The translations under genes and the position numbers were made by a program. From a virus, in the IMG/VR virus record IMGVR_UViG_3300031965_000073, positions 1 to 40,786 of that record: a stretch of 40,786 nt of DNA; one strand, 5' to 3'. The first letter of the stretch is position 1. Every line of letters starts with the position of its first letter. The notes under the pieces were generated by a model. It was not told where the DNA came from. It was given only the letters and a program-made list of their open reading frames with translations, and did no database searches. Below are positions 2,119 to 38,361 of this stretch, piece after piece.

Positions 2119-4263
2119 CTAAGCCATATAACCTTGTAATCTTTCAATGCCGTGGTCGCCCGCGAATAGCATGTCACCCTTGCCCGCTAGACGTTCGGCC
2201 CCTGCATCGTCGAGCACCACCTGTGAGTCAGTGATCTTCGCTGTCTTGAACACCACCTTTGTAGGGAAGTTCGCTTTGATAGTTCCCTTAATGACATCAA
2301 CTGATGGTCGCTGTGTCGCGATGATAACGTGTATGCCCGCGGCTCGTGCCTTCTGTGCGAGCAAGAGAATCGAGCGCTCAATTTCTGCTGAAATATCTGT
2401 CTCCTCAATTCTTGTTTCCTCCTCACCTTTGCGCGGGCCTTGTGCGAATACCTTGCCGGTGAGTATGGTCTTCTTCTCGATATGTCGTGCGGCAATTAGA
2501 TCGCCGAACTCATCAATGACCACAAACTTTGTCGGCATGTTCTTCATCTCTGCACTGCTTCGCTTCTTTGCTTTCGCCATCTGCTTGTACCGGTGATTCA
2601 TTTCATCGACCAATGCCCGCAACGATGTATGAATCGGCATGATGTCACACTGGTACTCGACCACATTCGCATCGTCCTGATGCTGTGAGAGTTCCACCAT
2701 TTTCGGGTCATATAAATGAATCTGCACCCCACTGATTCGAGAGAGTTGTGTAATCACACTCGAAAGGAATACCGACTTGCCGCTACCGGAAGCACCGGCG
2801 ACAAGCATGTGCGGTGCATTCCTGATGTCGAACCGTCGTGCATTCCCCATCACGTCCTCACCTATTGCAAGGTCAAAGCCGTTACCGGAAGGCAATGCAG
2901 GGAAGGTGCGCTCGAATCGTGGCACCTCGAATCCAATGAGCGAGCTATCGGGAATCGGTGCAAGCACCCGCACTCCTGAAACTCCAAGCACCTGAGAAAT
3001 ATCATCGGCAAAGTTTCGTACCTTGCTCATCTTGATACCGATGCTAGGTGCGAACCGGTATAGGTCTACCGTTGCCCCATGCACCAATGAATCGAACGAA
3101 AGCATCATGCCGTGTTCCATCATCTTCGTTTGTATTTTTTCTTCGTTTTTCATTTTTGAATAATCTATATTTTTAGCAGCTACAAATTGCTCCTCAACTG
3201 CCTTCATGAGTTTCCTCATGTTGCCCGCACTTTGTATCTCTCTTTTAAGTAACTCTGTGATGTTATCGACTTTGTGTTTCTTCATCAGTGCCGCGGTTTC
3301 CTCCGGCATATCGAGCCGGTGAATGTATGCGACGATAGCAACTTCATTGTCGAACATTGCATCGACGTTCGGTACGAATATCGCCTCACCATTGAGCGCT
3401 CGCGTGATGTCCTCATAGAATCGAAAGAAGAAGTCGAAAAACAAATCATTGTCTTTGAACACCATCTCGTACTCACGAACCTGTGGCGAGCCGTCACTAT
3501 TCTTTGTGTACTTCGCTTCCTGAAACGTCACGCTGTACGGCTCCTCACCATGCTTTGCATACGTCAGTAGGTAGTAAATCACCGCCTGCAGAATCTTTGC
3601 ACCATCAATTTTCTCCGGATTGCTGTATGCGTAGCACGTTTTATAGTCAACGATTTTCAGCTTCCCATCGACACGGTCAGTCCGGTCAATGTACCCTTTG
3701 AGTGCCACCGGTAGACGTAGCTCGCGCCCGCGCCACTCGACATCAATAATCTCTTTGATTTCATCCTCGACTGATACCAGAGTTTCTTTGTTGTATGGCA
3801 TCTGCTTCACATACGAGTTGTAGGTGAACGTGAATACCTCAAAGAGTTTTTGCTTGTTCGGTATCGTCTTCGAGTAATTGATGAACCCGTCATTGTGCTT
3901 TTCGATATAGTCCATGCCTGAGGTAAGGCCGTACTCGATTGCCTCTGCCTCGTTTGTTGGTATGAGGGTATCACTGCCACCGTAGTACACTTCCATCGCA
4001 TGATGAAAGGCATTTCCGAGAACCCCTGATACATTGCGGGCCGTATCGAACCGGTCACCATTCATGTACTCAATCTTGAATAGAATCGGATTCGTCGAGA
4101 ACCTTCGCATCGAACTCGCACTGTAGTGCGGAACCGGAAAGTCAGTTTTTATCGGCGTCGATGGCTGCCTCTCCTTCAACTGTGCTTTGATCGCCTTCGG
4201 CATTTGTAGCCCCATGCGTACTTTGGTCTTCCGCACCGACTTTGTCTTGTTTGGTTTTTTCAT
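2119..4263 (-). CDS. Fusion protein: N-terminal PD-(D/E)XK (RecB/Cas4-like) nuclease domain plus C-terminal FtsK/SpoIIIE-type DNA translocase ATPase. It has no TM segments and no gamma domain.
   Basis: Nuclease motifs: GNAFHHAME, VEDEIKE, GYIDRTDRVDGKLKIVDYKT, QAVIYY. FtsK motifs: LVAGASGSGKSV (Walker A), FVVIDEFGDL (Walker B), IIATQRPSVDVIKGTIKANFPTKVVFKT, GKGDMLF. The start is uncertain: ATGs at 4263, 4215 and 4203 all overlap the RecT 3' end. Confidence 0.8.
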   Translation of the reverse strand: MKKPNKTKSVRKTKVRMGLQMPKAIKAQLKERQPSTPIKTDFPVPHYSASSMRRFSTNPILFKIEYMNGDRFDTARNVSGVLGNAFHHAMEVYYGGSDTLIPTNEAEAIEYGLTSGMDYIEKHNDGFINYSKTIPNKQKLFEVFTFTYNSYVKQMPYNKETLVSVEDEIKEIIDVEWRGRELRLPVALKGYIDRTDRVDGKLKIVDYKTCYAYSNPEKIDGAKILQAVIYYLLTYAKHGEEPYSVTFQEAKYTKNSDGSPQVREYEMVFKDNDLFFDFFFRFYEDITRALNGEAIFVPNVDAMFDNEVAIVAYIHRLDMPEETAALMKKHKVDNITELLKREIQSAGNMRKLMKAVEEQFVAAKNIDYSKMKNEEKIQTKMMEHGMMLSFDSLVHGATVDLYRFAPSIGIKMSKVRNFADDISQVLGVSGVRVLAPIPDSSLIGFEVPRFERTFPALPSGNGFDLAIGEDVMGNARRFDIRNAPHMLVAGASGSGKSVFLSSVITQLSRISGVQIHLYDPKMVELSQHQDDANVVEYQCDIMPIHTSLRALVDEMNHRYKQMAKAKKRSSAEMKNMPTKFVVIDEFGDLIAARHIEKKTILTGKVFAQGPRKGEEETRIEETDISAEIERSILLLAQKARAAGIHVIIATQRPSVDVIKGTIKANFPTKVVFKTAKITDSQVVLDDAGAERLAGKGDMLFAGDHGIERLQGYMA

Positions 4264-5059
4264 CTTTCAAAAGATTACCCATGGCAATACCGCTCGACTC
4301 TTTCTGTGCGGCTTCCATACGGTCACTGATAATTGAATCTCGATTGTCCTCCGCGATTGCATTCACGATGGTTTCATTCTTCGGTACGAGCTTCGCCACT
4401 TGCTTCAATACGGTCTTCTTCCACATCCAAAGTTGCGGGTCATTGTTTTCATTCCATGGTGAAAAGTCGCCTCCGAAACTCTTGCTGAACTTCTTACCCA
4501 TTGCCAATATATCTTTAGCACTCATCACCTCACTCACCTCGCCACCGGAACCCAATCGCACAATCACATACGCACCGATTGCCTCACCTCTATCACTAAA
4601 GTGGTCAGGCCGGTGTGTGATTTTCTTATTCTCAACTTCAAAGAAGTCGTTTTTGCGAACCACATCAGCGACGATCTCGATTGCTCCGGCTCGATAAAAC
4701 AAAGTCACCAGACCTTGATAGCCTAGTTGGAACTGTGCTTCGAGCACTCCTTTATTCTTGTATGGCAGTACATACGCTTCACCACTCACACCCGACGGCA
4801 TGAATCCAAGCTGTGCCATGGTCATGAAACTATTTATGACCGACGGCGCTGTGCAGTTCAGCAGTTCAGGAAGTCGCTGCGTTGCCGCGACCACCGCACT
4901 GAGGAATGCCATTGCTTTCTTGTCGTCACCAAAATAGTTTTGTATCTGCCTCATGTAGTTCTTTGCAATGACATCTTTCAATATCAACTCGCTCCCGAAC
5001 TTCGTAGGAATAACCACCGGCTTTGACGCTGTGGGTTTGTTTTGCATGTCGTTACTCAT
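4142..5059 (-). CDS. recT: RecT-family single-strand annealing recombinase
   Basis: RecT-like core: APSVINSFMTMAQLGFMPSGVSGEAYVLPYKNKG...QFQLGYQGLVTLFYRAG...PWNENNDPQLWMWKKTVLKQVAKLVP. The C-terminal tail is acidic and looks disordered. Confidence 0.8.
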   Translation of the reverse strand: MSNDMQNKPTASKPVVIPTKFGSELILKDVIAKNYMRQIQNYFGDDKKAMAFLSAVVAATQRLPELLNCTAPSVINSFMTMAQLGFMPSGVSGEAYVLPYKNKGVLEAQFQLGYQGLVTLFYRAGAIEIVADVVRKNDFFEVENKKITHRPDHFSDRGEAIGAYVIVRLGSGGEVSEVMSAKDILAMGKKFSKSFGGDFSPWNENNDPQLWMWKKTVLKQVAKLVPKNETIVNAIAEDNRDSIISDRMEAAQKESSGIAMGNLLKDEKTKQDKVGAEDQSTHGATNAEGDQSTVEGEAAIDADKN

Positions 5060-8864: not shown

Positions 8865-10025
8865 TTAAGCGAACTTTTTATTAAGTACCTCCCTCGTCAG
8901 TTGATACACGTATCGACCTCCGTTTTGATCTAACTGCCAATCCGGTAGCAAACGGTTATCTTTCTGCAGTCGCAATACCGCTGCTGCAGTTTTCGGCCCG
9001 TAGATACCGTACTCGTCAATCTTCACATCGAGGTAGCCAAGAATTGAAAGTGCTACGTGCAACTTTTTCACTTCATCATTCTGCATGCCGTACTCAATGT
9101 TTGTCTCATAGCGATGTCGGAAGTTTTTTGCTTCCGGTAAGTCCTTCACCGTCTTTATGATGGCTTCCGGTATCTCAGAAACTACCCATGCCTCAGTGAA
9201 GTAGTAAGGCGCGAGCGTTCCAAAAACAAAATTGTAGTAACCGGCCTCCTGTTCATTGTTGTCGAAGCACCAATCTCTACCCCATGAGTTCGGGCCTGCC
9301 AAGAGCATGCCGTTATCGAGTCCATCATACTCATTCATTGCCATGATGTGACCGCCGGTAATCGGTGACGGTACTCTCAGTGGCAGTAAGTCCTTTGCCT
9401 TCTTTGTGGGTTTATTATCTTTCGTGCGGAACATGTTCGTACCCGTTGCGAATCGCGCAATGACCACACGGCCCGCGGTGATCTCTTTCGCGATTGTGAT
9501 AGGGTCGAGCTTCAACTTGTAGTAGCCCGCAATTTTGTGGTTTGCCGCATCTGCAAGTACTTCTGCCGGAATCACACCGCCATAGGTACTCTTGAAGTCA
9601 GCAATGAACTCTGCATAGGTTCCTGTCGTCTTGAGTGGGAACTTCGCGCGGATTTCCTTCGTCGGCATACCGTATTTGTTTGCCGCCTTGAGCATCGTGA
9701 GGGCAGAACTACCCTCGAAGTGCCGCCCATAGAGCAAATCATCGAAAAGGGTCTTGCCGATAAGGTAGCCCCAATACTCATCGAGGCGCACCCCATCTTT
9801 GAAGTATTCCTCCACTGCCATACGAACGCCGCATTTAGTGCAGATTCCGAGCTTCCTCTGGTCACAGAGTTCATTGACCGTAGGATAGTTGAGCTTCACT
9901 TCCCCGCGCTCTGGAACCTCGCCCGCGGTGTCCGGCATCATTTCCGATGTCACTGTTCGATAATCATCAGCCGATGGCTCCCCGCCGAATGAGATTTCTA
10001 ACTCGTCCTGTTCATTGTTTTCCAT
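8865..10025 (-). CDS. Endolysin: papain-like (C1-type) cysteine peptidase domain plus a C-terminal peptidoglycan-binding (PG_binding_1-like) domain
   Basis: GGHIMAMNEYDG and NSWGRDWC...GYY resemble the His and Asn-Ser-Trp-Gly blocks of C1 peptidases. The C-terminal KLHVALSILGYLDVKIDEYGIYGPKTAAAVLRLQKDNRL is a typical PG-binding repeat. It is adjacent to the holin. Confidence 0.7.
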   Translation of the reverse strand: MENNEQDELEISFGGEPSADDYRTVTSEMMPDTAGEVPERGEVKLNYPTVNELCDQRKLGICTKCGVRMAVEEYFKDGVRLDEYWGYLIGKTLFDDLLYGRHFEGSSALTMLKAANKYGMPTKEIRAKFPLKTTGTYAEFIADFKSTYGGVIPAEVLADAANHKIAGYYKLKLDPITIAKEITAGRVVIARFATGTNMFRTKDNKPTKKAKDLLPLRVPSPITGGHIMAMNEYDGLDNGMLLAGPNSWGRDWCFDNNEQEAGYYNFVFGTLAPYYFTEAWVVSEIPEAIIKTVKDLPEAKNFRHRYETNIEYGMQNDEVKKLHVALSILGYLDVKIDEYGIYGPKTAAAVLRLQKDNRLLPDWQLDQNGGRYVYQLTREVLNKKFA

Positions 10026-19363: not shown

Positions 19364-22273
19364 TTATTCTAGCATTGTTTTATCCTTCTGTTCACTCTCC
19401 AACTGGTGACTTTCCTTGCGGGTGAATAGGGTTACTTTCTCGATTATCGAAGTGAGGAATATCGCTGTTTTTCCCACTATAACGCTCCCCTGCTGATGAA
19501 TGTACGCAAAGACGTCTTCGAGGCTAATCGACTCTGTGAGGGTGCGCCCTGCTTGTTTTAGGACGGTATCTACCAAAGTCACAACCTCGTCAAACGTGCG
19601 CGTGAAGCTCCTCGTGATGGTATCTACGGGTGTGACCACATCAGTGAGCACCTTGCCTATCGAGCGCAGTATGGAATCAACTACCGTCACTGTCTCTGTG
19701 AGCGTTCGGGAACCCTGCTTCAATACCGTGTCTACGAGGGTCACAGTTTCCGTGAGCATCTTCATGCCTTGCTTTAGTAGCGTATCAACAAGGGCCACAG
19801 CCTCACTCAAAGTTCGGCTCGTACTCTTGAGAACCGTATCTACCAAAGTAACTACATCAGTGAAGGTACGGCTCACCTGCCGAATAATAGTATCGACGAT
19901 TGTGATTGTTTCCTCAAATACAGCAATCGCCACTTTTGCTCCTGTAAAAGTATCGACCATCGTGACCACATCTGAAAGGGTGCGTGCGCATTGTTTTAAA
20001 ACACTATCGACTGCCGTGACTGTTTCAGTGAGCATACGCGATGGTTCACGAATAATTGAATCAACAAGTGTGACCACATCTGTCAAAGTTTTTGAACCTT
20101 GCTTTAGTAGCGTATCTACGATGGTCACGATGTCTGTGAGAGTGCGCGAGCATTGCTTCAAAACGGTATCAACAATAGTAATAGCATCAGCAAAAGTGCG
20201 CGCCGTTTGCTTTTCCACATTATCAACAATCGTAGCGACATCAGTAAGTACGCGCGAAGACCCTTTGAGAATGGTATCGACTATAGTCACGACTTCTGCA
20301 TACTCTTCTTCGTAATCTGTACCGCCACCGCCTGTTGAGGTATACGTGACATACACAGAGTACTTGCGGTCTTCATCTGTACCGTCACTCGGATTTGTTG
20401 GAGTAGCGAAACTGTTTGTTGTGTCATTAAGCCCCTGACCTGTAGTACCAGAATCATAATAGAGCGTCCACGATATGTCGCTACTTACAACCATTATATA
20501 AAACTCGTTGCCGTTAGTGATTTGTGGTGAAGATGAATAGGTACACGTTAATGTTTGATTACCGTTACTTCCAGTTCCAGATTGAGGACTTGTACCATTC
20601 GTGACGATATTTTTTGAACTGTTTGATACGACTATTTTTATTCTTGCCTTCGTACCAACAAGGGTTAAGATTGCACTACCTGAGGTAATATCACCATTTT
20701 CGCTTGCAGTGAACTTTGAGCCAAGTAACCGGTTTGAACCTATTGAGGTCTGACTCGAGCCACCTTGCGAAGTAAATCCAAGAGTGGGGTCAATCACGAC
20801 AGGGTACTGAGCTTCATCGAGAAAATCTTGCGGCACTACCACTTGCAAAATGCCGTTCTCTATATCGAGATTCAGTTCACCCCACACTTCCCGATTGTCG
20901 GCGTCCTTAATCTTTGGTCTGTATATGTGAAGAAACTTGCCATTTTTATAGTCCTTCGCATGCTCCTTCGATGATGCGCCTGATTTTTCTTCATGATACA
21001 CCGCATAGCTCCCTACTACATTTTCAGGCCGAAAACAACCGTCGTCTATCTCTTTTTGCGTGAGTTCAGGCTGATAGTAAAAAACCAATCCTTTAGTTTC
21101 AATACTAAAATCAACGATATTCGAAGTCGGTTTTTTATTGAAGATAACTTCTATTTCAAGACCCCCCTTAGAACTTTCTGCGGGTTCGAGCAATTCAGAA
21201 TCCTCAATATCATTGCGTACAGCGTCTAGAGTCCATTCACGAGAAACATGCACAGTCTCTACCCCATCGAGTATGGTTTCTTCTTCTTTTGTGAAAGCTC
21301 CTGCACTGAAAGTCAAACCTATATTTTGAGCAATCCTTTCTGCAAGTGATTCCTCGAACTGAGACACATCTATATCCTGCAACTCACGCAAACCACCAAA
21401 GTAATCCAAACGCTCCGGTGAAACATTGTATATGCTGTAATGCTCGAGTGGCGTTTTCTCGACATTCACAAACCAAGCAGAACTGCTACTGCCATTAAAA
21501 GAGTTTAAATAACTGATTCCAAAGAACTTTTTCTTTTTCCCATCAACCAAAATAAACAAGTCGGTAGTAGATTCATCTTTCAATACTTCGATACCATACT
21601 GTGCACATGTTTCTACTACGGCGTTCGCAACAGCGCTTTCGTAACGTTCTTGCCCGCCACGCGGGTATATCAACGACTGTAGAATGACTCCTTTGCCGAC
21701 AGTAAGCCCTCCAATGAGGTCAAAATCATTTTTGAAAAGACGTATTACATTATAGTTTTCAATCTCTGCTGTAATGGCAAAATTGCTCACAGCACTTTTA
21801 CCGGCAAACAAAGCAATCGCGTCTTTATAATCCTGTGAAAACAATAGCACTTCTTCTGGTTTTACGAATCGATGCATTTCAGAAAACGCAGCAATGCGAG
21901 TATGCGCCATTCTATCCTTTACAAATCGAAGCACAGTAGGGCTAACTGTTTCCTCATTCTTCACTTCACCTAGTTCGTATATGTGAGTCTCAACATCATC
22001 GGTCTTGTACTTTATAACCTCTCCTTCAATTTCAACAGTTGCACCGTCATACTCTGCTGAACGAATCGAAAAATTGACCTCATTATCCCACTTCATTATC
22101 TTCGCCTGAGGTTTGAAGTCGGTTTGTTTGCTGTCTCCAATTTCAAGCTGTAATCGTTCTTTCGGGTCTTCCACAACATCTCGTATGAGTGTTTCACCTT
22201 CCACAGTGAACTTGCCACCGATCTCTGTCGGGATTATCTCTGGTAACTTAGTTTTGATTTTAGTATCAGGCAT
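19364..22273 (-). CDS. Large virion-associated protein (969 aa) with a C-terminal array of 14 tandem 18-aa repeats
   Basis: The track ORF starts on GTG at 22306. The first ATG is at 22273 (MPDTKIKTKL...). The repeats have the consensus D-V-V-T-I-V-D-T-V-L-K-Q-G-S-R-T-L-T. A beta-rich Ser/Thr/Asn central region lies upstream of them. Confidence 0.8.
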   Translation of the reverse strand: MPDTKIKTKLPEIIPTEIGGKFTVEGETLIRDVVEDPKERLQLEIGDSKQTDFKPQAKIMKWDNEVNFSIRSAEYDGATVEIEGEVIKYKTDDVETHIYELGEVKNEETVSPTVLRFVKDRMAHTRIAAFSEMHRFVKPEEVLLFSQDYKDAIALFAGKSAVSNFAITAEIENYNVIRLFKNDFDLIGGLTVGKGVILQSLIYPRGGQERYESAVANAVVETCAQYGIEVLKDESTTDLFILVDGKKKKFFGISYLNSFNGSSSSAWFVNVEKTPLEHYSIYNVSPERLDYFGGLRELQDIDVSQFEESLAERIAQNIGLTFSAGAFTKEEETILDGVETVHVSREWTLDAVRNDIEDSELLEPAESSKGGLEIEVIFNKKPTSNIVDFSIETKGLVFYYQPELTQKEIDDGCFRPENVVGSYAVYHEEKSGASSKEHAKDYKNGKFLHIYRPKIKDADNREVWGELNLDIENGILQVVVPQDFLDEAQYPVVIDPTLGFTSQGGSSQTSIGSNRLLGSKFTASENGDITSGSAILTLVGTKARIKIVVSNSSKNIVTNGTSPQSGTGSNGNQTLTCTYSSSPQITNGNEFYIMVVSSDISWTLYYDSGTTGQGLNDTTNSFATPTNPSDGTDEDRKYSVYVTYTSTGGGGTDYEEEYAEVVTIVDTILKGSSRVLTDVATIVDNVEKQTARTFADAITIVDTVLKQCSRTLTDIVTIVDTLLKQGSKTLTDVVTLVDSIIREPSRMLTETVTAVDSVLKQCARTLSDVVTMVDTFTGAKVAIAVFEETITIVDTIIRQVSRTFTDVVTLVDTVLKSTSRTLSEAVALVDTLLKQGMKMLTETVTLVDTVLKQGSRTLTETVTVVDSILRSIGKVLTDVVTPVDTITRSFTRTFDEVVTLVDTVLKQAGRTLTESISLEDVFAYIHQQGSVIVGKTAIFLTSIIEKVTLFTRKESHQLESEQKDKTMLE
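19535..20296 (-). repeat. In-frame tandem repeat array, 14 units of 54 nt (one unit is 60 nt)
   Basis: Units read EVVTIVDTILKGSSRVLT / DVATIVDNVEKQTARTFA / DAITIVDTVLKQCSRTLT / DIVTIVDTLLKQGSKTLT ... EVVTLVDTVLKQAGRTLT. The antisense track ORF 19500..20315 is itself periodic. Confidence 0.85.
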
Positions 22274-22276
22274 TTT

Positions 22277-22306
22277 AAAAAAAGAGTGGGCACATTTTAT
22301 GCCCAC
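22277..22306 (-). terminator. Intrinsic terminator/attenuator hairpin immediately upstream of the 969-aa gene start
   Basis: The minus strand reads GTGGGCA-TAAAATG-TGCCCAC-TC-TTTTTTT-AAA-ATG. The loop contains the TAA stop of the upstream gene. Confidence 0.55.
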
Positions 22307-33915: not shown

Positions 33916-34259
33916 TGGACTAGAAGGGAATTGAACCCTTGTCCGGTAATGGTCTTCAACGATTTCTACGAGATATATGCGAGAGTTTCAGTGCCGCCCA
34001 CTGTTCGGGTAATCTCCACGATCACCGAATGCTTCAAACCTATCTCCACCAGTGGCCCTTTATATAACAACAAGCAAAGCGACGACCACGAACCTATTTG
34101 CTTGCCGACCTTACGCGTATTGTGGTTCCTGTAGGAACGCTGCGTATGGTGATGGTATAGAAGTTTTTGCAACTATGCCTTGCCACTCTTTTAAGAATGT
34201 GTGGCCGTTTCTATCTCGCCTCGTATCGAACGGTATCACCGTCGAAGCCTGACTAGCCC
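33916..34259 (-). ncRNA. ssrA: Full-length one-piece tmRNA (344 nt, CCA not encoded)
   Basis: The 5' end is GGGCTAGTCAGGCTTCGACGG and the 3' end is CCGGACAAGGGTTCAATTCCCTTCTAGTCCA. The acceptor stem GGGCTAG/CTAGTCC carries a G3:U70 pair. The T arm is AAGGG-TTCAATT-CCCTT. A tag ORF begins at nt 90. Confidence 0.85.
34111..34170 (-). other. tmRNA tag reading frame: AKTSIPSPYAAFLQEPQYA followed by a stop
   Basis: ATAGTT-GCA AAA ACT TCT ATA CCA TCA CCA TAC GCA GCG TTC CTA CAG GAA CCA CAA TAC GCG TAA. The GCA resume codon sits at the same distance from the 5' end (nt 90) as in E. coli tmRNA. Confidence 0.6.
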
Positions 34260-34349
34260 TTGTGCCGGTTAATCACCGGCCTACCTACCTCCCACCGCTT
34301 TCAAGTATGCACTATACGCTAGGTAGCGACAAGTACAGTTACCCACTGC

Positions 34350-36067: not shown

Positions 36068-36805
36068 TTATTTTTTACAATACAACGTCTTGCATGGCGG
36101 AAACCAAGATGCGGGCCACGATGCTGTACCGGCGTAATCGTTCGGCGGCATGACGTCCTTAAAGGCATCTTTCAGTTGATACAGCACCTTTCGGAACCGT
36201 TCTAAATCAGGGTCTACATCGAAGCTCCACTCGAAAGTAAGTTTGTTGATGCGATCTAGGATAGCCCGATTTGAGGCAATTTGCTCCAAGATAGGCATTT
36301 CCGTACCCTCTATGTCCATTTTGATGTTCAGTGGCCCTACCACTGCGCCTAGGGCATCCAGTACGTTCACACACGGTACTGTGGTGCTCTGCCCGCCTTG
36401 CCATGGCCGTTCGATGCTATTGCGCCATACATTGCCGTGAGCCGTGTTCTGATGCAGTGTCGCGGTCTTGCGCTCATCTGCCACTACTGCCGCCTTGTGT
36501 AGCTCGTAGCGACTGTGGTCATGCATACGCATGTTCAGGCTCAATACCTCGAAGTTTTCAGGGTCAGGCTCGTATGCAATCACTTTCGCTGCGCCCTTAT
36601 GCACCGCCCACGAACTGAACCCGCCCACATTTGCCCCAAAGTCAAACCATGTCTCACCGGCCTCCACAGTGAAACGTACAGGCCGGAATCGCTCATACCC
36701 TTTATCGACCACCACTTCATCAATACTTTTCTTGTCGCTCGTGCCTTCGCGAATGAAGAATGTGATGTCCTTCACGCGGTACTCCTTCAAGTTATTTTGG
36801 CTCAT
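36068..36805 (-). CDS. FkbM-family SAM-dependent methyltransferase
   Basis: WFDFGANVGGFSSWAVHKGAAKVIAYEPDPENF is the SAM-binding motif of the FkbM type. LNIKMDIEGTEMPILE matches the conserved ...K.D.EG.E..+L block. Confidence 0.75.
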   Translation of the reverse strand: MSQNNLKEYRVKDITFFIREGTSDKKSIDEVVVDKGYERFRPVRFTVEAGETWFDFGANVGGFSSWAVHKGAAKVIAYEPDPENFEVLSLNMRMHDHSRYELHKAAVVADERKTATLHQNTAHGNVWRNSIERPWQGGQSTTVPCVNVLDALGAVVGPLNIKMDIEGTEMPILEQIASNRAILDRINKLTFEWSFDVDPDLERFRKVLYQLKDAFKDVMPPNDYAGTASWPASWFPPCKTLYCKK

Positions 36806-37613
36806 TTGATTTCACGCGCTTTCGCTCGCGCTGCGTTTTAATGTTTCTAATACGAGCAATCTCATCATCGACGGTAAGACACTCCCACATGCCACGTAGC
36901 GAGTAGAACACTGCCGTGAACCGATACCCCTCATCGGAAAGCAACTTGAATGGTGTCACTCCATGCAAAATCTCTTGCCCGTCGAAAAGCAAAATCGAAT
37001 TGTCGGCAATCTCTAGCCCCATATCGTACTCCGGTAAGGAAAGATGCCCGCCCTCACAGTCGTGTTTGAAAGCGACCATGCATGAGAACACCTTCTTGAA
37101 GTTACCGGTATCGAAGTGATATTTGAGTGGATTGTTTTTGTTGATGATGCCGGAAGTGAATGGCGTGTTTGGAATCACCCACTGATCTTCTTTCATGTTT
37201 TCGCGCAATGTCTCACTGTGCTTTTGAAAGACCTCCGGTGCGCGTTGCAAGTAAATGCCCGCAATCTTTTGACCGAGTTCCACGATAGCAGCATGTGCCT
37301 CAGGGTCTTCGGTAGAAAGTGATGTCGCACTGCAGAAGTCCTTACGCATTGTTACCCGCGGCGCAAAGCCAAAGATGCGCGAAACTGTTTTCAGGCCCGC
37401 GGTGCGCTCTGTCTTCTGATACTTGATTTTCTTGAATGCCTCTTTGTACGGTGTAGTATCAAACGGCAAGTGGTCATACACCACCTTCACTTCACCATCG
37501 TGCATCAGTGTCACAGGGTCTTTCACGAGCGTCGTGAAGTCACTCACATTTGCACCGCGCAACTTGTAATCCTTATAGTCAAGTTCGCGTAGTTTAGCTT
37601 CGATTATTTTCAT
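36792..37613 (-). CDS. 2OG-Fe(II) dioxygenase of TET/JBP-like type
   Basis: HxDxxN appears in PLKYHFDTGNF. GGHLSLPEYDMGLEIADNSILLFDGQEILHGVTP supplies the distal His, and RFTAVFYS the 2OG-binding Arg. The spacing parallels the Naegleria Tet PHKDNLD...GYLEL...GDVLFFKGNEYKHVV...RIGLVYF. The track start at 37622 is GTG and the first ATG is at 37613. Confidence 0.6.
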   Translation of the reverse strand: MKIIEAKLRELDYKDYKLRGANVSDFTTLVKDPVTLMHDGEVKVVYDHLPFDTTPYKEAFKKIKYQKTERTAGLKTVSRIFGFAPRVTMRKDFCSATSLSTEDPEAHAAIVELGQKIAGIYLQRAPEVFQKHSETLRENMKEDQWVIPNTPFTSGIINKNNPLKYHFDTGNFKKVFSCMVAFKHDCEGGHLSLPEYDMGLEIADNSILLFDGQEILHGVTPFKLLSDEGYRFTAVFYSLRGMWECLTVDDEIARIRNIKTQRERKRVKSNEPK

Positions 37614-38361
37614 AGTATTCACGTAGTTTAATGACGGCCTCTGTGTTGCTTTCTACTCCATGCTCCTCCATCACAGTCGCCAAAAACTCGAGCATATCTT
37701 CGTACTCAGCCGTCGGGAAGTACAGCACGATTTGCTTGATGCTTGCGTTGTCGTAAATCTCTTTCGCATCCTTCACCCGATTGCGATCTACCTCCTCACC
37801 TTTTTGTGGCCCGCGAGCGCGCACATCTGCCATATCGTAGCGCTCAATGAGTGTTTCCAAGCCGGTAGAGTATGCTGTCTCGACGTTGTACATGCCTAAA
37901 TCGAGGCCACCGATAGAGCGTAGGTCACTCACGAGTGCATCTTCCACATAGAAACCGGCGCGGTCATTGTGTGAAAGTGCATACGACATCATGCCCGCTT
38001 CCTTCGATTCGTAGGTGACGGTCTTCCACTTCTTTGTCTCAGGGTCGAGCATTTTCTGCAATTCCCCATTGAGGTAGACAGTCCATACTCCATCATTTTC
38101 TTTGAACTCAACAAGCGATACCCACACTTTTTTGAATGTCTCGTACCCCTCTGCAATAAGCTCATGCATAATCAGCAATCGCATGTTGCCTCCGAGCACC
38201 ACTTTGAAACCATCGTCGTGTGTAATCAAAAGCGGGGTATGCTGTCCGAGCTTCCGCATTTGCTCCTTCAAACGGTCTTTCCCTTTATCGTCAATCGAGC
38301 GCGGGTTCTTTTTCCAAGATACCAAGTCGCCGATTGATTCTGTGACACGCTCTGCTGACAT
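37594..38361 (-). CDS. ParB/Srx N-terminal-domain protein with a C-terminal domain of unknown function
   Basis: DLVSWKKNPRSIDDKGKDRLKEQMRKLGQHTPLLITHDDGFKVVLGGNMRL fits the ParB-like nuclease-domain pattern (NPR...L..S....G...P+.....++.G..R). Confidence 0.65.
   Translation of the reverse strand: MSAERVTESIGDLVSWKKNPRSIDDKGKDRLKEQMRKLGQHTPLLITHDDGFKVVLGGNMRLLIMHELIAEGYETFKKVWVSLVEFKENDGVWTVYLNGELQKMLDPETKKWKTVTYESKEAGMMSYALSHNDRAGFYVEDALVSDLRSIGGLDLGMYNVETAYSTGLETLIERYDMADVRARGPQKGEEVDRNRVKDAKEIYDNASIKQIVLYFPTAEYEDMLEFLATVMEEHGVESNTEAVIKLREYYENNRS

Follow-up and report, generated by a model that had tools for sequence, protein, structure and literature searches.

The window analysed here, positions 1 to 40,786 of IMG/VR virus record IMGVR_UViG_3300031965_000073 (the whole stretch, 40,786 nucleotides), holds the complete 40.7-kb genome of an uncultured tailed phage, and within it lies a full-length one-piece transfer-messenger RNA (tmRNA, ssrA) gene. 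Homologous tmRNA genes recur in related phage contigs, where the base-paired structure, the alanine identity elements and the tag peptide are conserved. We regard it as probable that the gene encodes a functional phage-borne accessory tmRNA that rescues ribosomes in infection by way of the host's alanyl-tRNA synthetase (AlaRS) and SmpB. Phage tmRNAs are already known; what stands out here is the small genome, the recurrence of the gene in an uncultured lineage, and a conserved, distinctive tag.

A complete ssrA gene on the minus strand

ARAGORN placed a non-permuted tmRNA at 33915-34259 on the minus strand; its coding part spans nt 90-149 and specifies the tag AKTSIPSPYAAFLQEPQYA, followed by a stop codon. 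Likewise, the Rfam model RF00023 matched 33913-34259 (-) over model positions 1-374 with a score of 75.2 bits (E 1.4e-27), compared to a gathering score of 47 bits. The first-pass annotation, made from the sequence alone, had proposed a full-length ssrA gene here rather than the short 3' fragment carried as attP, and the strong covariance-model match and the agreement of ARAGORN both support that proposal. The parts of the gene are as follows.

33916..34259 (-): one-piece tmRNA (ssrA) gene, 344 nt up to the discriminator A, found by ARAGORN and Rfam and identical in two other assemblies
34253..34259 (-): 5' strand of the acceptor stem, GGGCTAG, which holds G3 of the G3:U70 alanine identity pair (sequence reading)
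33917..33923 (-): 3' strand of the acceptor stem, CTAGTCC, followed by the discriminator A at 33916 (sequence reading)
33924..33940 (-): T arm, AAGGG-TTCAATT-CCCTT (sequence reading)
34235..34241 (-): 5' strand of helix 2a, CGGTGAT, whose partner ATTACCG lies at 33944-33950 (covariation)
34182..34212 (-): pseudoknot 1 (PK1), with stem 1 (S1) AGAA/TTCT interleaved with stem 2 (S2) GCCACAC/GAGTGGC, stopping 11 nt before the resume codon
34174 (-): frame-setting A at -4 relative to the resume codon, which corresponds to E. coli A86 (invariant column)
34111..34170 (-): tag frame, with the GCA resume codon at 34168-34170, 19 codons for the tag given above, and TAA at 34111-34113 (ARAGORN)
34052..34104 (-): pseudoknot 2 (PK2), with S1 CAAGCAAA/TTTGCTTG and a loop, GTGGTC, that pairs with GGCCAC downstream (RNAfold of the segment plus manual pairing)

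The 7-bp acceptor stem with its G3:U70 pair and discriminator A, the T arm, and the conserved block GGCTTCGACGG near the tmRNA 5' end, all of which the first-pass annotation had singled out, can be read in the sequence. Its placement of the GCA resume codon at nt 90 and of a 19-residue tag ending at TAA is that of ARAGORN as well; the letters directly before GCA read CATAGTT. CCA was correctly described as not encoded, since the 3' flank after the discriminator A reads CAT. In E. coli the choice of frame depends chiefly on A86 (PMC2481249). The long-range helix 2, which links the tRNA-like domain (TLD) to the body in the position of an anticodon arm, is present as judged by covariation of helix 2a, and the stop codon of the tag frame sits within helix 5 according to both the Rfam alignment and a fold of the segment. 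PK1 and PK2 both fold, and PK1 is backed by covariation. PK2 of the window forms an H-type pseudoknot; its counterpart in one homologue (L135, UUGGUC/GAUCAA) was judged by eye only. Beyond PK2, ~90 nt fold as two hairpins, and the Rfam alignment has a deletion in PK4. The pseudoknots of tmRNA are known to be replaceable (PMC2481249).

The gene resembles E. coli SsrA and other bacterial one-piece tmRNAs in its acceptor (G3:U70 and A73), T arm, helix 2, PK1, -4 A, GCA at nt 90, tag stop in helix 5, predicted downstream pseudoknots and hydrophobic tag end. In contrast to these RNAs, it is borne by a phage without a linked smpB, its tag lacks the ...YALAA end, CCA is unencoded, and the PK3/PK4 region is reduced; moreover, at 75 bits with Rfam it scores roughly half as high as five chromosomal tmRNAs do (116-157 bits).

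Recurrence, conservation and origin of the tmRNA

To survey related phages we scanned the DNA around TerL homologues on ~40-kb contigs with ARAGORN, Rfam and an nhmmer profile, covering 7-10 kb on each side of TerL. The nhmmer profile, built from five sequences, was weak on divergent members, and ARAGORN missed two homologues (L136 and L217); calls of tmRNA absence were based on Rfam where possible. Six more full-length tmRNAs and one partial copy were found in TerL-related phage contigs, the partial copy being a 5' fragment truncated at the cut end of contig L149. The full-length homologues are listed below.

L135: Rfam 102.8 bits; tag ANASIPSPYSAFINEPALV
L136: Rfam 82.7 bits; tag ANAIKSPYAQHLGSLKLQLV
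L154: Rfam 72.2 bits; tag ANKAIVSPFFATIDDLQRSLIPA
L156: Rfam 78.4 bits; tag ANKQSIVSPYFSISELMSGFAFV
L217: Rfam 61.0 bits, just 304 nt; tag AASIPSPFYATSDALLGEAVPV
L219 (also L220 and L221, from other samples): ARAGORN only; tag AKSIVSPFYSDVGALQRELVLA

Where TerL is at least 55% identical to that of the window, five of nine relatives carry a tmRNA. The gene occupies a syntenic position within the cargo region, a short way upstream of terS, in the window and in L135, L136, L217 and L219; in L154 it is flanked by the portal and protease genes, and in L156 it is oriented away from terS. The tmRNA behaves like a small mobile accessory cassette. Two of the homologues adjoin tRNA genes: in L136 (14004-14436) a tRNA-Met gene directly abuts the tmRNA that follows it, without a spacer, and in L219 (8620-9172) the tmRNA abuts an unusually long tRNA-Thr gene (GGU, 92 nt), with a tRNA-Met gene 13 nt further on. 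These abutting arrangements imply that the genes are transcribed together and processed by RNase P as well as 3' nucleases.

We next examined structural constraint. The seven tmRNAs, that of the window included, have diverged to 54-60% mean column identity. Covariation was tested in five sequences over 23 pairs drawn from the acceptor stem, helix 2a, PK1 S1 and the T stem. In this set 94.8% of cells were paired and 16 of the 23 pairs exhibited double changes, while none of 500 shuffles matched any of the observed measures and slid controls paired at 37-54%. PK1 S1 was paired in 100% of cells with double changes at all four of its pairs, and helix 2a, paired in 83% of cells, displayed double changes at all seven pairs among the five homologues. 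When all seven sequences were considered, each of the 7 positions of the acceptor stem was paired in every one, with compensatory changes at 3 pairs; G3:U70 and the discriminator A were invariant; and the T stem was 100% paired, with its two outer pairs covarying. The interleaved S1 and S2 of PK1 could be located in 7/7 sequences with differing base pairs, ending 10-12 nt before GCA; the variants of S1 include AGAA/TTCT, CGAA/TTCG, GGAA/TTCC, CTCTTT/AAAGAG, CGGA/TCCG and AGTC/GACT. Columns A86, T89, G90, C91 and A92 were invariant in alignments A3 and A5, the -4 A is kept in all seven, and the tag frames comprise 19-23 codons.

The seven tags align as A-x-x-[S/A]-I-x-S-P-[Y/F], with I-x-S-P-[Y/F] as the core. 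The invariant Ile, Ser and Pro are specified by 3, 4 and 4 different codons, respectively, serine by both TCN and AGT. The tags of the window and L135 share 11 of 19 residues, and their codons divide into 7 that are identical, 4 with synonymous sense changes and 8 with non-synonymous changes. Such retention of residues amid codon turnover is what selection on the translated peptide, rather than on the RNA sequence, would leave, and it implies that this frame is translated and that the sequence of the peptide matters. Every tag ends in A or V (YA in the window; LV, LV, PA, FV, PV and LA in the homologues), and a hydrophobic C-terminal residue is the rule for nearly all tmRNA tags (PMC4131195). 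The first-pass annotation had called the tag non-canonical, which holds insofar as it lacks the canonical ...YALAA end; its hydrophobic end, in contrast, is usual, and the tag is shared by a family of seven phage tmRNAs. Its start, of the form AN-K-x-IVSP-F/Y, resembles ANNIV-S/P-F, which we take to be the start of cyanobacterial tags, a resemblance that our literature search did not confirm. As judged from the peptides, the I-x-S-P-[Y/F] core together with the hydrophobic end suggests that the fate of tagged proteins may also matter to the phage.

With respect to origin, when the tmRNA locus was compared with 50,697 phage records by blastn, nothing matched at E 1e-5, and a 30-nt match at E 0.3 was all that appeared. 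In IMG/VR, patterns for the tag motif and for PK1 plus the resume codon were without matches. The 3' TLD pattern matched once, at an unrelated permuted tmRNA, and of seven matches to the 5' pattern only one (L127) was a tmRNA, also unrelated. The permuted gene (L001, IMGVR_UViG_3300027685_000002, positions 1349-1761 of a 36-kb contig) is a two-piece tmRNA with the tag ANDDVYEGYALAA, situated among four tRNA genes. A scan of genome contigs with a single 3' acceptor/T-arm pattern returned 120 loci, almost all of them Lachnospiraceae tmRNAs. By blastn these share only the 30-nt bait with the phage gene, and their global identity of ~65% comes with no calibration against unrelated tmRNAs; a Lachnospiraceae origin was dropped because the likeness was limited to the bait. 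No close cellular or cultured-phage tmRNA was found, the cellular side being covered by that one pattern scan. The phage family scored 61-103 bits with Rfam, compared to 116-157 bits for the five chromosomal tmRNAs. This pattern of divergence appears to fit long residence in phages better than recent capture.

Ribosome rescue and competing explanations

We infer that the tmRNA is expressed and charged, that it uses host SmpB, and that it confers a physiological benefit. Host RNase P would cut the 5' end of the precursor, the 3' end would be trimmed, and host nucleotidyltransferase would add CCA. Host AlaRS would charge the tmRNA with alanine through G3:U70 and A73, and host SmpB and EF-Tu would bring it to stalled ribosomes. 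There the -4 A would set the frame on GCA, and the ribosome would append the 19-residue tag, stop at TAA and be recycled. The host factors are presumed because the phage was found to have no SmpB: neither SmpB nor an integrase appeared in PHROG and Pfam scans or among precomputed Pfam matches, with a few open reading frames (ORFs) of <100 aa outside the scans. The benefit would be more ribosome-rescue capacity while host mRNA decays or is cut by host nucleases or toxins, and the conserved tag suggests a further benefit that depends on tagging. Some phages rely heavily on trans-translation: lambda-immP22 plates ~10,000-fold less well when tmRNA or SmpB is missing, an effect due chiefly to the lack of ribosome rescue, with tagging secondary (PMC2862035).

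Several observations weigh against this interpretation. The consensus scan detected no sigma-70-like promoter directly upstream of the tmRNA. The fit with host SmpB and AlaRS is presumed. The closest relative (L134/L002, one contig; TerL 82% identical) lacked a tmRNA in the flanks examined, as did ~30 more distant relatives within 7-10 kb on either side of TerL, indicating that the tmRNA is dispensable for such phages. Since the tag is without the ...ALAA degron of ClpXP, proteolysis may or may not follow tagging. Finally, the PK3/PK4 region is short and aligns poorly to the Rfam model, and one homologue measures just 304 nt.

The same departure from ...ALAA, together with a conserved N-proximal I-x-S-P-[Y/F] unlike the tags known to us, would also suit a dominant interfering tmRNA that competes for SmpB and stalled ribosomes and whose tag, being no degron or one for another protease or adaptor, blunts or re-routes host trans-translation instead of merely adding to it, a possibility raised in the first-pass annotation. 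Such an RNA would have to draw on the host pool of SmpB, as the phage encodes none, and titration of SmpB is the role suggested for the TLD-only molecule of mycobacteriophage DS6A (PMC4131195). We nevertheless consider interference unlikely. Titration of SmpB alone would call for neither a tag frame nor PK1 nor the frame-setting A, and all three are conserved; likewise, the hydrophobic A/V C-termini match those of ordinary degradation tags. Interference departs from ribosome rescue only in the fate of the tagged proteins, a point that sequence cannot decide.

We give somewhat less weight still, and only tentatively, to the idea that the tmRNA is kept mainly for its tag, with A-x-x-S-I-x-S-P-[Y/F] serving as a phage-specific address for an adaptor or protease, of the host or of the phage, other than ClpX-LAA, or as a peptide that ClpX-LAA cannot read. 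If this were true, truncated proteins from rescued ribosomes would be handled to the advantage of the phage during infection, for example by evading or disarming mRNA-cleaving abortive-infection toxins, or by sparing phage proteins; the tRNA-like neighbour described below could then share the same counter-defence RNA island.

That the gene is a neutral passenger or decaying pseudogene, a cellular ssrA gained by illegitimate recombination and without function, we hold to be improbable. The patchy distribution among relatives, the variation in position and strand, and Rfam scores below those of the chromosomal tmRNAs would all agree with such a history. However, seven copies at ~54-60% column identity keep all TLD pairs, G3:U70, PK1 and the -4 A, all seven have an open tag frame in which a conserved motif coexists with synonymous codon turnover, and no near-identical cellular donor was found in the single 3' acceptor/T-arm scan.

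An ssrA-derived sequence in a small or temperate phage genome also calls to mind the TLD-only ssrA of DS6A and the ssrA 3' fragments of attP sites. Indeed, ssrA is often an integration target (PMC3146451, PMC9004378), and distant TerL relatives lie inside chromosomes, e.g. of Bradyrhizobium and Rhodospirillales. It is nonetheless very improbable that the sequence serves as an attP core for insertion into a host tmRNA gene. Whereas attP copies hold the 3' part of ssrA only, and neither they nor the DS6A molecule possess an mRNA-like domain, the window has the whole gene, with the 5' acceptor strand, PK1 and a conserved tag frame; beyond the 30-nt bait it is unlike any cellular tmRNA retrieved. 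The absence of an integrase, noted in the first-pass annotation, was confirmed by the PHROG and Pfam scans within the limit on short ORFs given above.

An assembly chimera or host contamination within the phage contig, for which nothing was found in favour, deserves practically no credence: the same circle, broken at different points and with an identical tmRNA locus, emerges from three assemblies of different type, homologous tmRNAs occupy the syntenic site before terS in L135, L136, L217 and L219, and GC content is level across the window, without a step in base composition at the locus. Bases 1-127 of the window recur exactly at its end, and this terminal repeat indicates a circular assembly of 40,659 bp:

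40660..40786 (no strand): exact terminal repeat of bases 1-127, an assembly overlap left by a circular contig whose true length is 40,659 bp

Two more assemblies of the same genome, an ENA k141 contig of 40,800 bp and a Logan contig of 40,689 bp, exceed this circle by 141 and 30 nt, respectively, which, inferring from the lengths, corresponds approximately to the assembler overlap. The three independent assemblies break the circle at different places, and the tmRNA and the adjoining tRNA-like gene are identical in both other contigs (L132, L133). An assembly artefact, which the first-pass annotation had named as a possible refutation, was thus not borne out, and the tmRNA gene truly resides in the phage.

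The phage, its RNA island and the meaning of the tmRNA

PHROG and Pfam scans identify the genome as that of a tailed phage in which every convincing gene lies on the minus strand. Among its products are TerS and TerL, a portal of Mu type that carries a fused Mu F-like domain, a Mu-like protease and a major head protein; further genes encode a tail tube, a tape measure and a putative endolysin, the last recognised from weak PHROG matches and a peptidoglycan-binding domain. A RecT-like annealing protein is present, as is a weak RusA-like match. For TerL (window 31137-32762, -), tblastn gave no match at E 1e-5 in 50,697 INPHARED records or in PLSDB plasmids, and IMG/VR held no TerL relative. Hundreds of metagenomic homologues were found, however, many of them on ~40-kb contigs. 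The phage is a member of a widespread lineage without a deposited cultured representative. TerL homologues that are ~50% identical occur in Bradyrhizobium, in a Rhodospirillales metagenome-assembled genome (MAG) and in a Planctomycetota MAG, with prophage copies in Bradyrhizobium and Rhodospirillales; a host assignment on this basis was dropped, as ~50% identity is too distant.

The tmRNA sits in an accessory RNA island, a variable part of the genome between the early/replication genes and terS. Its other features are as follows.

34264..34280 (-): hairpin GCCGG-TGATTAA-CCGGC, 4 nt upstream of the mature 5' end of the tmRNA (sequence reading)
33816..33837 (-): hairpin GCACC-TCGGAAG-GGTGC with TTTTT after it, resembling a terminator and lying ~80 nt downstream of the tmRNA (sequence reading)
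33480..33558 (-): aberrant tRNA-like gene with encoded CCA (ACCA); Rfam tRNA 42.4 bits, ARAGORN 'tRNA-???' with anticodon caca
33457..33480 (-): intrinsic terminator at the end of the RNA island (consensus scan)

The hairpin at 34264..34280 may, on its sequence, terminate an upstream transcript or belong to the precursor leader. That at 33816..33837 was not flagged by the consensus terminator scan. Beyond the intrinsic terminator, the consensus scan located a promoter-like site at 33327-33356, ahead of terS. The Rfam scan found no riboswitch in the window, and no gene that travels with the tmRNA (an adaptor, or one resembling SmpB) was identified; the neighbouring ORFs occur either in relatives without a tmRNA or only here.

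The tRNA-like gene lies ~360 nt downstream of the tmRNA and has an anticodon arm that is 3 nt over length. ARAGORN draws this arm as a 6-bp stem with an 8-nt loop, CUCACAAG; in the minimum free energy fold the stem has 8 bp and closes a CACA tetraloop. Relatives carry tRNA-Met genes at the same site, and the loop is similar to their CUCAUAA. The gene was without a copy in the related loci searched by blastn (L217-L221 lay outside that search). Possible identities are a tRNA in decay, a tRNA of the quadruplet-decoding or frameshift type, and a decoy.

Elsewhere in the genome, a TET/JBP-family dioxygenase gene (PF12851) overlaps one for an FkbM-type methyltransferase (PF05050) at window 36068-37622 (-); the PHROGs label of the PF12851 protein, queuine tRNA-ribosyltransferase, is wrong. 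The pair is kept in most close relatives and probably constitutes a DNA base-hypermodification module. L217 has a C5 DNA methylase in the corresponding region, and no TET/JBP or FkbM match was recorded there. At window 2119-5059 (-), a 714-aa fusion of a PDDEXK exonuclease and an FtsK/SpoIIIE translocase ATPase adjoins the RecT-like gene, and together they form an unusual recombination/replication module. The fusion is also found in L004, L134, L136 and L217, whereas L135 has a YqaJ-type exonuclease instead. A 32-nt unit occurs five times (66-100% identical; spacings of 162, 54, 330 and 54 nt) at window 19551-20182 (+ coordinates), within a large tail-associated gene, the 980-aa minus-strand ORF 19364-22306, and the units probably encode a repeat at the protein level. 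Among the relatives, the TerL of L135 (14760-17234) is 824 aa long and, given its weak-to-faint Pfam matches to Hint and LAGLIDADG, probably contains an intein, and a distant relative, L165, has a LOOT RNA (RF03000, 89.5 bits) just downstream of its TerL gene, at 8984-9102 (-).

Phage tmRNAs are usually regarded as part of the translation toolkits of jumbo phages. In one survey 402 of 18,146 phage genomes (2.3%) carried a tmRNA (PMC9004378), and Table S1 of that study (Buchholz et al. 2022) lists most tmRNA phages at >78 kb and few at 34-61 kb, in agreement with the statement in the first-pass annotation that these genes come mainly from large phages. The tmRNAs of mycobacteriophages and Bacillus phage G were listed in 2014 (PMC4131195), and some huge phages carry a tmRNA plus SmpB (PMC7162821). 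The window gene is like the tmRNAs of large and huge phages (Bxz1, Wildcat, Bacillus phage G, Streptomyces phages of ~130 kb, Lak) in being a complete, apparently functional one-piece ssrA. Those genes belong to lytic-type genomes, often within tRNA clusters (PMC4131195, PMC9004378 Table S1, PMC7162821). Whereas such carriers mostly span 78-600 kb and have big translation gene sets, the genome here comprises 40.7 kb with one aberrant tRNA-like gene. The two-piece tmRNAs of marine phages (Melnitz, HTVC008M, cyanophages) are likewise accessory and patchy within a phage group, with 17 of 47 Melnitz-like contigs carrying one (PMC9004378); in contrast to the standard one-piece form in the window, they are circularly permuted, in some cases with linkage to a glutamine riboswitch. 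In the literature searched we found no functional test of a phage tmRNA, such genes having been catalogued only.

A genome of 40 kb has little luxury space, yet this one retains a complete tmRNA, as do at least six relatives. Preservation of the tag at the amino-acid level despite codon drift points to selection on tagging, and not on ribosome recycling alone. The seven natural tags offer a ready means of finding out by which protease or adaptor they are read, and they also bear on whether phages use trans-translation against mRNA damage or mRNA-cleaving defences. These findings also indicate that, among uncultured phages without relatives in culture collections, tmRNA genes travel as small cassettes.

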